From a virus (lineage: Duplodnaviria > Heunggongvirae > Uroviricota > Caudoviricetes): 5,496 nt of DNA. The translations under genes and the position numbers were made by a program. How positions within the stretch are numbered: the first letter of the stretch is position 1; every line of letters starts with the position of its first letter. A model generated the notes under the pieces. It saw nothing but the letters and a program-made list of their open reading frames with translations. It was not told where the DNA came from and made no database searches. Location: IMG/VR virus record IMGVR_UViG_2698536476_000006. One strand, given 5' to 3'. Shown piece after piece: positions 3,261 to 5,496 of this stretch.

Positions 3261-3412
3261 GCGAAATTAACTAGAAGCCAAAGATAAAATCATCGCTGAG
3301 CAGGAGAAAATCGCTAACGGAGAAAAGACAGTAAGTCAGTATATGAAAACCGCATGATATCATCAGATAAAAATCGATCGTAAAGCGAAATATTAATACC
3401 AGAATAAACGAG

Positions 3413-3436
3413 TCGAGGTAAATTATATTACCTCGA
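3413..3436 (-). terminator. Candidate hairpin terminator downstream of the minus-strand membrane-protein gene
   Basis: Perfect inverted repeat TCGAGGTA (3413-3420) / TACCTCGA (3429-3436) around an AT loop. On the minus strand it is followed by CTCGTTTATT, a weak U tract. It lies 35 nt beyond the stop codon of the 3471..4073 gene. Confidence 0.35.
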
Positions 3437-3470
3437 TAAATTAACTAAAACTTGCCCGCTATATACTATC

Positions 3471-4073
3471 TCATTCAGTATCATCACGCGCGGTCTGTGC
3501 ATATGTTACTACCGCACCTAATGTATTAATTTTCTTTTCAACATAGATAATATTATCGTACTCATAATTGCCATACGGATAGCAAATGCGAATATTCTCA
3601 TGTAGATCGGGGTCATCCACCTCAGCTCCAGAACAACTTTTTGAACTACCGGAAGTATACCGATACGGTGCAACATAAGACGATGTCTCTCCAGGCAAAA
3701 AATAAGTTAGTGTTGTAAGGGGTATAATCAGAAAAAATCCAGCAAATATGCACATCCCTGCATAAACCTTAAGGTATGCTGACAGACTCTTCCAGCCGCT
3801 TTGTTTTACTATCCCCTTCTTAACCCAAAACAGAGATAACAGAAAAGCTATTCCCATGCTAAACAGAATGTAATAGTGGGATATACTCTGATTAAGAAAC
3901 GTGACCCTGTAAATATCTGCCCGCCACCAGAAGAAAAGGAAAATAAAGATCAGGCCTGAAACTGTCATGCAAATCAAATAAGGATACGAATCTTTTTTCA
4001 TGTTTAGCGTCCATAAAATTTTTCCTGCCCCGGACAAATTTACCATCCATTTTTTGCGCAGAAAATAGCTCAT
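3471..4073 (-). CDS. Hypothetical integral membrane protein (about 3 predicted TM helices plus a roughly 70-aa Cys-containing C-terminal domain); moron-like cargo gene, start codon uncertain
   Basis: The only long minus-strand ORF not shadowing a recognised gene. Hydrophobic stretches YLICMTVSGLIFIFLFFWW, HYYILFSMGIAFLLSLFWV and MCIFAGFFLIIPLTTLTYFL, followed by a polar C-terminus ...SKSCSGAEVDDPDLHENIRICYPYGNYEYDNIIYVEKKINTLGAVVTYAQTARDDTE. Candidate starts are ATG at 4073, 4046 or 4001 (MKKDSYPYL...); none has a strong SD. The gene is visibly AT-rich relative to the flanking recombination genes and antisense to the operon. Confidence 0.6.
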   Translation of the reverse strand: MSYFLRKKWMVNLSGAGKILWTLNMKKDSYPYLICMTVSGLIFIFLFFWWRADIYRVTFLNQSISHYYILFSMGIAFLLSLFWVKKGIVKQSGWKSLSAYLKVYAGMCIFAGFFLIIPLTTLTYFLPGETSSYVAPYRYTSGSSKSCSGAEVDDPDLHENIRICYPYGNYEYDNIIYVEKKINTLGAVVTYAQTARDDTE

Positions 4074-4245
4074 TACTTACTGCACAATAATACACAAAAT
4101 TGCGTAAATTTTTTGCATGGATTTTAGCTCTTTCAGCCGACGTTTAAGGGGTAAATAGCATTTCCTAAAAGCAACTGCACCAACCCAACAGAATGAGCTA
4201 CCGCTTACGTTGAGAGCAAAAAAGTGTATAGCAGCAATGAACAGC

Positions 4246-4272
4246 ATCCTCGCACTGACGAGGATTTCTTTT
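4246..4272 (+). terminator. Intrinsic (rho-independent) terminator-like hairpin
   Basis: ATCCTCG (4246-4252), loop CACTGA, CGAGGAT (4259-4265) form a perfect 7-bp stem, followed by TTCTTTT (4266-4272). Confidence 0.5.
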
Positions 4273-4315
4273 ATCTGAACTCGCTACGGCGGGTTTTGTT
4301 TTATGGAGATGATAA

Positions 4316-4483
4316 ATGCACTTCCGAGTCACAGGTGAATGGAATGGAGAACCATTCAACAGAGTTATCGAAGCAGAGAACATCAATGACTGCTATGACC
4401 ACTGGATGATATGGGCGCAGATAGCACATGCAGACATAACCAATATTCGAATTGAAGAACTGAAAGAACACCAAGCCGCCTGA
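4316..4483 (+). CDS. Hypothetical small protein, 55 aa, immediately upstream of xis
   Basis: ATG at 4316 is preceded by GGAG (4304-4307). Translation MHFRVTGEWNGEPFNRVIEAENINDCYDHWMIWAQIAHADITNIREELKEHQAA-like (55 codons). The TGA stop (4481-4483) sits in the loop of the downstream terminator hairpin. Below the ORF-track cutoff; the overlapping 61-aa track ORF 4224..4409 in another frame has no SD and is less plausible. Confidence 0.45.
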   Translation: MHFRVTGEWNGEPFNRVIEAENINDCYDHWMIWAQIAHADITNIRIEELKEHQAA

Positions 4484-4498
4484 TGGCGGCTTTTTCTT
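4473..4498 (+). terminator. Intrinsic terminator between the 55-aa ORF and xis
   Basis: GCCGCC (4475-4480), loop TGAT, GGCGGC (4485-4490), then TTTTT (4491-4495); flanking A/T could extend the stem to 8 bp. Classic GC-rich stem plus U tract. Confidence 0.6.
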
Positions 4499-4522
4499 GC
4501 GTGTAATTGCGGAGACTTTGCG

Positions 4523-4741
4523 ATGTACTTGACACTTCAGGAGTGGAACGCACGCCAGCGACGCCCAAGAAGCCTTGAAACAGTTCGTCGATGGGTGCGC
4601 GAATGCAGGATATTCCCTCCTCCGGTTAAGGATGGAAGAGAGTATCTGTTCCACGAATCAGCGGTAAAGGTTGACTTAAATCGACCAGTAACAGGTAGCC
4701 TTTTGAAGAGGATCAGAAATGGGAAGAAGGCGAAGTCATGA
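4523..4741 (+). CDS. xis: Xis, excisionase (recombination directionality factor); 72 aa
   Basis: Track ORF MYLTLQEWNARQRRPRSLETVRRWVRECRIFPPPVKDGREYLFHESAVKVDLNRPVTGSLLKRIRNGKKAKS matches lambda Xis. GGAG (4511-4514) lies 8 nt upstream. The 3' end overlaps the int start by 23 nt. Confidence 0.95.
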   Translation: MYLTLQEWNARQRRPRSLETVRRWVRECRIFPPPVKDGREYLFHESAVKVDLNRPVTGSLLKRIRNGKKAKS

Positions 4742-5337
4742 GCGCCGGGATTTACCCCCTAACCTTTATATAAGAAACAATGGATATTACTGCTACAGGG
4801 ACCCAAGGACGGGTAAAGAGTTTGGTTTAGGCCGAGACAGGAGGATAGCAATCACTGAAGCAATACAGGCCAATATTGAGTTATTTTCAGGACACAAACA
4901 CAAGCCTCTGACAGCGAGAATCAACAGTGATAATTCTGTTACGTTACATTCATGGCTTGATCGCTACGAAAAAATCCTCGCCAGCAGAGGAATCAAGCAG
5001 AAGACACTCATAAATTACATGAGCAAAATTAAAGCAATAAGGAGGGGGCTGCCTGATGCTCCACTTGAAGACATCACCACAAAAGAAATTGCGGCAATGC
5101 TCAATGGATACATAGACGAGGGCAAGGCGGCGTCAGCCAAGTTAATCAGATCAACACTGAGCGATGCATTCCGAGAGGCAATAGCTGAAGGCCATATAAC
5201 AACAAACCCGGTCGCTGCCACTCGCGCAGCAAAATCAGAGGTAAGGAGATCAAGACTTACGGCTGACGAATACCTGAAAATTTATCAAGCAGCAGAATCA
5301 TCACCATGTTGGCTCAGACTTGCAATGGAACTGGCTG
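4719..5337 (+). pseudogene. int: Integrase (lambda Int, tyrosine recombinase) interrupted at codon 207 by an IS insertion; only the N-terminal arm-binding and core-binding portion is contiguous
   Basis: From ATG 4719 the translation MGRRRSHERRDLPPNLYIRNNGYYCYRDPRTGKEFGLGRDRRIAITEAIQANIELFSGHKHKPLTARINSDNSVTLHSWLDRYEKILASRGIKQKTLINYMSKIKAIRRGLPDAPLEDITTKEIAAMLNGYIDEGKAASAKLIRSTLSDAFREAIAEGHITTN.VAATRAAKSEVRRSRLTADEYLKIYQAAESSPCWLRLAMELA matches lambda Int residues 1-206. From about 5338 the sequence becomes the IS terminal repeat, and the expected VTGQR(212)VGDL is absent. Confidence 0.9.
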
Positions 5338-5496
5338 TGAACCGCCCCGGGTTTCCTGGAGAGTGTTTTATCTGTGAACTCAGGCTGCCAGATCATCGTT
5401 TCCGATGGAAGCATAATAAGCTTTTTCTGCTTCTGCCGGGGGAGTATGGCCCAGCCTTTCCAGCAATCGTCGATTGTTATACCAGTCCACCCACGT
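5338..5496 (-). mobile_element. Terminal 159 bp of an IS3-family insertion sequence (IS629/IS1203-like), transposase on the minus strand; element continues beyond the window
   Basis: The sequence starts with TGAACCGCCCCGGG, which I recall as the IS629-type terminal inverted repeat. The reverse complement encodes the C-terminus of an IS3-family OrfB transposase. The boundary is ambiguous by 1-2 bp because of shared bases with int. Confidence 0.85.
5380..5496 (-). CDS. 3' end (last 38 codons) of IS3-family transposase OrfB; 5' part outside the window
   Basis: The reverse complement of 5380..5496 reads TWVDWYNNRRLLERLGHTPPAEAEKAYYASIGNDDLAA*, a typical C-terminal tail of IS3/IS629-group DDE transposases, with the stop codon 41 nt inside the IS end. 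Confidence 0.8.
   Translation of the reverse strand, partial: TWVDWYNNRRLLERLGHTPPAEAEKAYYASIGNDDLAA

Follow-up and report, generated by a model that had tools for sequence, protein, structure and literature searches.

The DNA analyzed in this study, a stretch of 5496 bases to which we refer as the window, comes from an E. coli prophage of the lambda/434 type. It covers the distal half of the early leftward operon (pL), which runs from left to right here. The gene order starts with the cIII leader thermosensor, a full-length match (88.5 bits) to the Rfam family RF01804 for the lambda cIII thermoregulator RNA element at positions 177-235, which covers the leader and the start of cIII. This is followed by cIII, kil, gam, bet and exo, by homologues of orf60a (DUF1317) and orf63 (DUF1382), and then by a gene for a TraR/DksA-type zinc-finger protein, a low-GC block, orf55, xis and the start of int. 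The low-GC block (3300-4245, GC content 0.35-0.40) is common only to the phages 434, 2B8 and mEp332. It includes an open reading frame for a membrane protein of 200 residues on the minus strand (3471..4073, phrog_1416), which is antisense to the pL operon and for which no match was obtained in Pfam, NCBIfam or PADLOC. The excisionase gene xis (4523..4741, plus strand; Pfam PF07825 Exc, E-value 3.9e-41) has a Shine-Dalgarno (SD) sequence GGAG at 4511-4514 and overlaps the 5′ part of int (4719..5337, plus strand) as in lambda. From position 5338 onwards int is cut by an IS3-family (IS1203/IS629-like) element (5338-5496 in the window), which truncates the gene after about 206 codons, so that the prophage in the window is probably unable to excise. 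The genomes that match the window have a tyrosine integrase and an IS3/IS1203 transposase annotated at the int end. Prophages that are 99.9% identical over the whole window adjoin ybhC in O103:H2, O121 and O157 strains, and they carry the genes for the N antiterminator, cI (a LexA-family repressor) and cII upstream, in the same orientation and in the same operon. The placement of the IS element differs in these prophages, since it is found between kil and gam in O103:H2 and about 21 codons into int in O157:H7.

When the window was scanned for terminator-like sites, 18 were found, compared to 5.4 ± 2.3 in shuffled sequences. One of them (142-159) is located upstream of cIII, and another (2961-2979), located after an orf61-like gene, has a form identical to the predicted terminator t2 of lambda. 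A further hairpin at 3413-3436, between the TraR-like gene and the convergent membrane-protein reading frame, is AT-rich, has 9-10 bp and folds on both strands. The present analysis concerns the three hairpins around orf55. In a megablast comparison with phage records, positions 4080-4560 were 100% identical to phage 2B8 and 99% identical to phage 434, and positions 4246-4560 were 96.5% identical to lambda 29355-29041, the lambda homology beginning exactly at position 4246, which is the first base of the first hairpin.

Hairpin 1 (4246..4272, plus strand) consists of the stem arms ATCCTCG (4246-4252) and CGAGGAT (4259-4265), the loop CACTGA and the tail TTCTTTT (4266-4272). The perfect 7-bp hairpin with a U tract that a preliminary description of this DNA had placed here can thus be read directly in the sequence. 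The folding energies which that description had proposed to calculate for its two hairpins came to −9.5 kcal/mol (shuffle z-score −3.0) for hairpin 1 and to −15.4 kcal/mol (z-score −3.4) for the hairpin at the end of orf55. For hairpin 1, 2 of 200 shuffled sequences folded equally well, and on the opposite strand the tail is weaker. DNA identical to hairpin 1 (cagcatcctcgcactgacgaggatttctttt) is annotated as 't-L4' in the phage 434 record M60848 (1991, int region), and the phage HK022 record X51962 has the annotation 'tL4 terminator' for a lambda-type version. Hairpin 1 aligns with the tL4 feature of HK022 and with lambda 29355-29329, and it corresponds to t3 among the predicted lambda terminators (Bloch et al. 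2014, PMC4195576, Table 4). The tL4 of 434 and hairpin 1 share not only the sequence but also the location, as they lie where the exo-xis region ends, about 44 nt upstream of orf55, and both present a hairpin with a U tract on the strand that is transcribed from pL. In contrast, lambda and HK022 have a variant stem (ATCCTCGC/GCGGGGAT) with 8 pairs, including one G.U pair, and a loop of 4 nt, whereas the form in the window and in 434 has 7 pairs and a loop of 6 nt. A second difference lies upstream of tL4, where the window has the 434-type block with the antisense membrane-protein gene and lambda has ea8.5. Literature searches on tL4 and tL3 gave no relevant result.

The preliminary description had also raised the possibility that hairpin 1 marks the 3′ end of a small RNA made from the AT-rich region 4100-4245, which we considered as an RNA with a promoter of its own in this region. 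There is a precedent for such an arrangement in lambda, where PreS/LPR1, a small RNA bound by Hfq, ends at another terminator of the pL operon, tL2a (bioRxiv 10.1101/2024.10.31.621285), and one weak promoter-like match (8 of 12 positions) is present at 4081-4110. However, no promoter was found at the scan threshold, a relaxed scan gave nothing convincing within 4100-4245, no Rfam family was matched, and the segment 4100-4272 folds no better than its shuffled versions (z-score −0.5). Moreover, the region 4100-4245 belongs to the 434-type block, which occurs in six phage records only, whereas the hairpin belongs to the segment shared with lambda, where it directly follows ea8.5. The RIL-seq study cited above names three lambda small RNAs, none of which is located here; while tL2a defines a functional small RNA, none has been reported at tL4 or t'I. 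With these data the suggestion of a small RNA ending at hairpin 1 has become highly improbable.

The preliminary description listed two terminators, both of which are present, but it overlooked a third hairpin on the plus strand (4277..4304), which is located between hairpin 1 and the SD sequence of orf55 and thus in tandem with tL4. This hairpin 3 has the stem arms GAACTCGC (4277-4284) and GCGGGTTT (4289-4296), the loop TACG and the tail TGTTTTAT; the hairpin at 4277-4296 with its T-rich tail TTTTGTTTT has a folding energy of −11.0 kcal/mol and a z-score of −4.1. Its sequence is that of t4 in the 2014 set of predicted lambda terminators (PMC4195576, Table 4). Hairpin 3 was found in 77 of 80 IMG/VR loci whatever the upstream DNA, the three others (L028, L029 and L032) having unrelated DNA at this place, and a frequent G/A variant converts a U.G pair into a U-A pair.

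The gene orf55 (4316..4483, plus strand, 55 codons) begins 44 nt past position 4272 and 19 nt after hairpin 3. Its SD sequence GGAG (4305..4308), which the preliminary description had noted, lies 7 nt before the ATG and is kept in 29 of 30 aligned relatives. The protein is a homologue of lambda lambdap35 (NP_597778), to which it is identical in 54 of 55 residues (98%), V41I being the sole difference. In the RefSeq lambda record, lambdap35 is located at 29118-29285, and the 434 record M60848 names the reading frame 'ORF55'. The SD sequence and the neighbors are the same in lambda and in the window, with hairpin 3 before the gene and hairpin 2 and then xis after it. The search of phage protein databases that had been recommended for the 55-residue protein yielded, besides lambdap35, a full-length match to the PHROG 676 profile (phrog_676; residues 1-55 of 55, E-value 1.7e-39), whereas searches of Pfam, NCBIfam and PADLOC were empty and a PDB profile search produced nothing beyond noise. 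The statement that this protein is uncharacterized therefore holds insofar as it has no known function, but the protein is not new, since it is Orf55 (lambdap35) of lambda, which has been discussed in the literature (PMC8614690, PMC3824215).

The reading frame of orf55 is intact in 35 of 35 distinct coding sequences, taken from the 80 IMG/VR loci, lambda and a Klebsiella relative. The polymorphic sites are distributed over codon positions 1, 2 and 3 as 3, 0 and 15, and the pN/pS ratio is 0.05 against lambda, 0.08 in the pooled comparison and 0.25 against the Klebsiella gene, whose product is 74% identical. The intact frames, the third-position bias and the low pN/pS ratios together establish orf55 as a real coding gene. 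Its product is a genuine small alpha/beta protein under selection, for which AlphaFold2 gave a beta-beta-alpha-beta model with a pLDDT of 89.9. An exhaustive profile search of 1.84 billion representatives retrieved only 53 at E ≤ 0.001, which makes the Orf55 family tiny. As to its function, orf55 has been grouped with orf73, ea22 and ea8.5 as four adjoining genes that are implicated in blocking the initiation of host replication (reported in PMC9239242). T7 Gp2, an inhibitor of the host RNA polymerase, has been proposed as an analogue of Orf55 (PMC8614690), and binding to the beta′ jaw of RNA polymerase has been presented there as a docking model, but we found no Gp2-specific structural or sequence similarity in Orf55. 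The lambda CRISPRi essentiality screen had a gene set that did not include orf55. On the minus strand, a reading frame of 117 codons (4301-4654) lies opposite orf55 and the beginning of xis, and it probably just reflects the codon usage of the sense strand. A contig scan retrieved orf55 at 98% identity from Shewanella, Pseudomonas, Kitasatospora, Oceanobacillus and other assemblies, often on contigs of about 48.5 kb; these copies (L005-L026) are almost certainly lambda DNA that contaminates the assemblies. Since the contig-scan matches are mostly such contamination, they added no diversity for orf55.

Hairpin 2 (4473..4498, plus strand) overlaps the end of orf55. It has the stem arms AAGCCGCC (4473-4480) and GGCGGCTT (4485-4492) with 8 pairs, of which 6 are G-C, the loop TGAT (4481-4484) and a T run up to 4495 that is followed by CTT. 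The TGA stop codon of orf55 (4481-4483) is located inside the loop, as the preliminary description had noted, and the 5′ arm contains the codons for the two C-terminal alanines of Orf55. That description had placed the hairpin 28 nt before the SD sequence of xis, but 28 nt after position 4495 lies the ATG of xis (4523), and the SD sequence begins 16 nt after 4495. The cII box of the int promoter pI (TTGC-N6-TTGC, 4497..4510, plus strand) begins within the tail of the hairpin and is identical to that of lambda, as is the entire segment 4493-4560; pI and the cII site are annotated in the 434 record OL657226. The lambda hairpin is the same, with a G.U pair in place of a G-C pair of the window and a correspondingly higher folding energy (−13.0 kcal/mol), so that one T-to-C change strengthens the stem in the window. 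Among the predicted lambda terminators it is t5 (PMC4195576).

In 434, the hairpin just before xis is named "t'-I" in the record M60848, and it is listed as a terminator with PMID 6305007 in OL657226. Both this t'I and hairpin 2 of the window are GC-rich hairpins with a T run that extends right up to the cII box of pI, roughly 30 nt upstream of the xis ATG. The integrase promoter and the t'I terminator of lambda and 434 were reportedly the subject of work by Benedik, Mascarenhas and Campbell in 1983. The two hairpins are nonetheless not the same, because 434 and HK022 have a gene of 114 codons (ORF114) between orf55 and xis, and their annotated t'I is another hairpin (GCCGCAT/ATGCGGC) that follows this gene, whereas in lambda and in the window the t'I position relative to pI is taken by the hairpin at the end of orf55, which it overlaps. 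We apply the name t'I to hairpin 2 provisionally and by equivalent position, the annotated t'I of 434 being a different hairpin after ORF114. The lambda record has no annotated t'I feature. We also considered that hairpin 2 had arisen when ORF114 was lost from between the two hairpins of 434, but rejected this, since the junction does not fit a simple crossover and a single T-to-C change from the lambda form fits better.

Taken together, the region is very probably the far end of the pL operon in a prophage of the lambda/434 type, where the tandem terminators tL4 and hairpin 3 are followed by orf55 and by a strong terminator at the t'I position. Each of the three hairpins has a GC-rich stem and a T-rich tail on the plus strand only or mainly, and all three have been predicted as terminators in lambda (PMC4195576). 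The hairpins, the promoter and orf55 are not new elements, as they were described decades ago as tL4, t'I/pI and orf55 of lambda and 434.

The comparison with 80 close relatives in IMG/VR showed that the cassette of hairpin 3, SD sequence, orf55 and hairpin 2 stays whole while its neighbors vary. The downstream junction is located right after the T run of hairpin 2, and at least five continuations were observed here, namely the lambda-type xis/pI, ORF114, a third common type and two rarer ones. Over the 80 loci and the window, the stem of hairpin 2 has a folding energy of −13 kcal/mol or better in 72 of 81 copies. Weakened stems were found at 4 of 14 loci before ORF114 and at 4 of 34 before the lambda-type xis, but at none of 31 before the third type. 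At the ORF114 loci, which are of the 434/HK022 type (L001 at 520-1000, and L032, L037, L041, L047, L086 and L095), GGAGG or GGAGT breaks the stem in these 4 of 14 cases, and a second hairpin after ORF114 occupies the t'I position. The upstream junction coincides with hairpin 1, of which a lambda type and a 434 type occur. One or more unrelated stems (such as AACCCGC/GCGGGTT) can stand in its place in front of the same T run, and a few loci (L037, L060) have no hairpin 1. In 30 distinct sequences 94% of the stem cells were paired, compared to 38-58% when the partners were slid. Double-sided changes were seen in helix 1 only, at 2 pairs, a value that was reached by 77 of 500 shuffles, and with relatives that are 95% alike the covariation signal is weak. 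The pairing in the relatives is therefore consistent with the structure, but it is not strong proof of it.

More distant relatives show how far the arrangement extends. In a Klebsiella prophage that encodes the 74% identical protein, the gene likewise ends in a hairpin (−13.3 kcal/mol) with the stop codon in the loop, and this hairpin is followed by a TTGC-N6-TTGC box, an excisionase gene and an integrase gene. The distant homologues of Orf55 (L109-L123, about 48% identity) are encoded one or two genes upstream of a different kind of integration module, with an excisionase of the AlpA type and a divergent P4-like integrase, and flanking terminators are absent there. The hairpins are therefore a property of the lambda-type cassette rather than of the protein family. 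The conserved position of the distant homologues may point to a connection with the integration end of the operon.

The variation around the cassette bears on the possibility that the hairpins are mainly module boundaries or stabilizers of mRNA 3′ ends that were left by recombination, with little termination in vivo. The start of the lambda homology precisely at hairpin 1, the junctions at hairpin 1 and after the T run of hairpin 2 with at least five downstream and several upstream partners over the 80 loci, and the lack of hairpin 1 in L037 and L060 would all fit this explanation. Indeed, the hairpins also mark edges where lambdoid phages swapped neighboring modules. However, the roles of boundary and terminator can coexist, and the canonical stems and strand-specific T tails of all three hairpins argue for termination. 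The same holds for the replacement hairpins at the site of hairpin 1, which are non-homologous and nevertheless retain a stem and the same T run, and for the equivalents in 434 and HK022, which the original authors annotated as terminators. A role as boundary or stabilizer with little termination is thus quite unlikely.

The terminators that flank orf55 and the mosaic junctions at either end also resemble the usual layout of a moron, and the gene with its terminators could accordingly be a self-contained unit that is expressed from the repressed prophage by a promoter of its own. This explanation, however, would need a promoter for which there is no room: there is no promoter-like site within 4246-4316, and the stretch between hairpin 3 and the ATG comprises only 19 nt. 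Furthermore, orf55 has the orientation and position of a pL-operon gene in every relative seen, and the GC content (0.44-0.48) is not anomalous. As there is neither room nor a promoter match, we rejected the moron explanation, which must be regarded as extremely unlikely.

If the hairpins are the terminators at the far end of the pL operon, homology and textbook lambda biology suggest that RNA polymerase lacking the modification by N at nutL would stop at tL4, at both of its hairpins, and at t'I. Stopping of unmodified polymerase at the hairpins would keep stray or early transcription from xis and int. After induction, N-modified polymerase coming from pL would pass the hairpins, which would result in the production of Orf55, Xis and Int. 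During the establishment of lysogeny, cII would start transcription from pI just past t'I, and Int would be made without Xis. For these hairpins, the literature searched gave neither mapped transcript 3′ ends nor values for termination efficiency or dependence on N. The preliminary description had claimed that terminators bracket the gene ahead of xis and that, without N-type antitermination, transcription should stop before xis and int. This agrees with the annotation of the homologous elements and with the presence of the N gene upstream in the near-identical prophages, but the claim that transcription should stop was too absolute, because the stop codon of orf55 lies in hairpin 2 and ribosomes are expected to weaken this terminator.

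In the work of Li et al. (PMC4824070), an intrinsic terminator located a few bases after a translated gene was almost fully repressed, and with the stop codon of orf55 inside hairpin 2, ribosomes that finish orf55 would be expected to weaken the terminator in the same manner. tL4, in contrast, is located about 1 kb beyond the last plus-strand gene in the window and should act unhindered. It is conceivable, though on balance rather doubtful, that t'I is a translation-sensitive terminator, in which a ribosome finishing orf55 close behind the RNA polymerase would block the formation of the hairpin. This idea is based on the layout in which the 5′ arm is built from the final two codons of orf55 and the loop contains the stop codon, a layout that is kept in the Klebsiella relative. 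If it were true, the non-antiterminated leak into xis would be set by the translation of orf55, and not by the hairpin alone.

In the prophage of the window, where int is broken by an IS element, the terminators and the promoter may no longer matter, and their local regulatory role is probably moot. In lambda-like prophages, these elements control the transcription of xis and int, and they consequently bear on how stably prophages are maintained in pathogenic E. coli.
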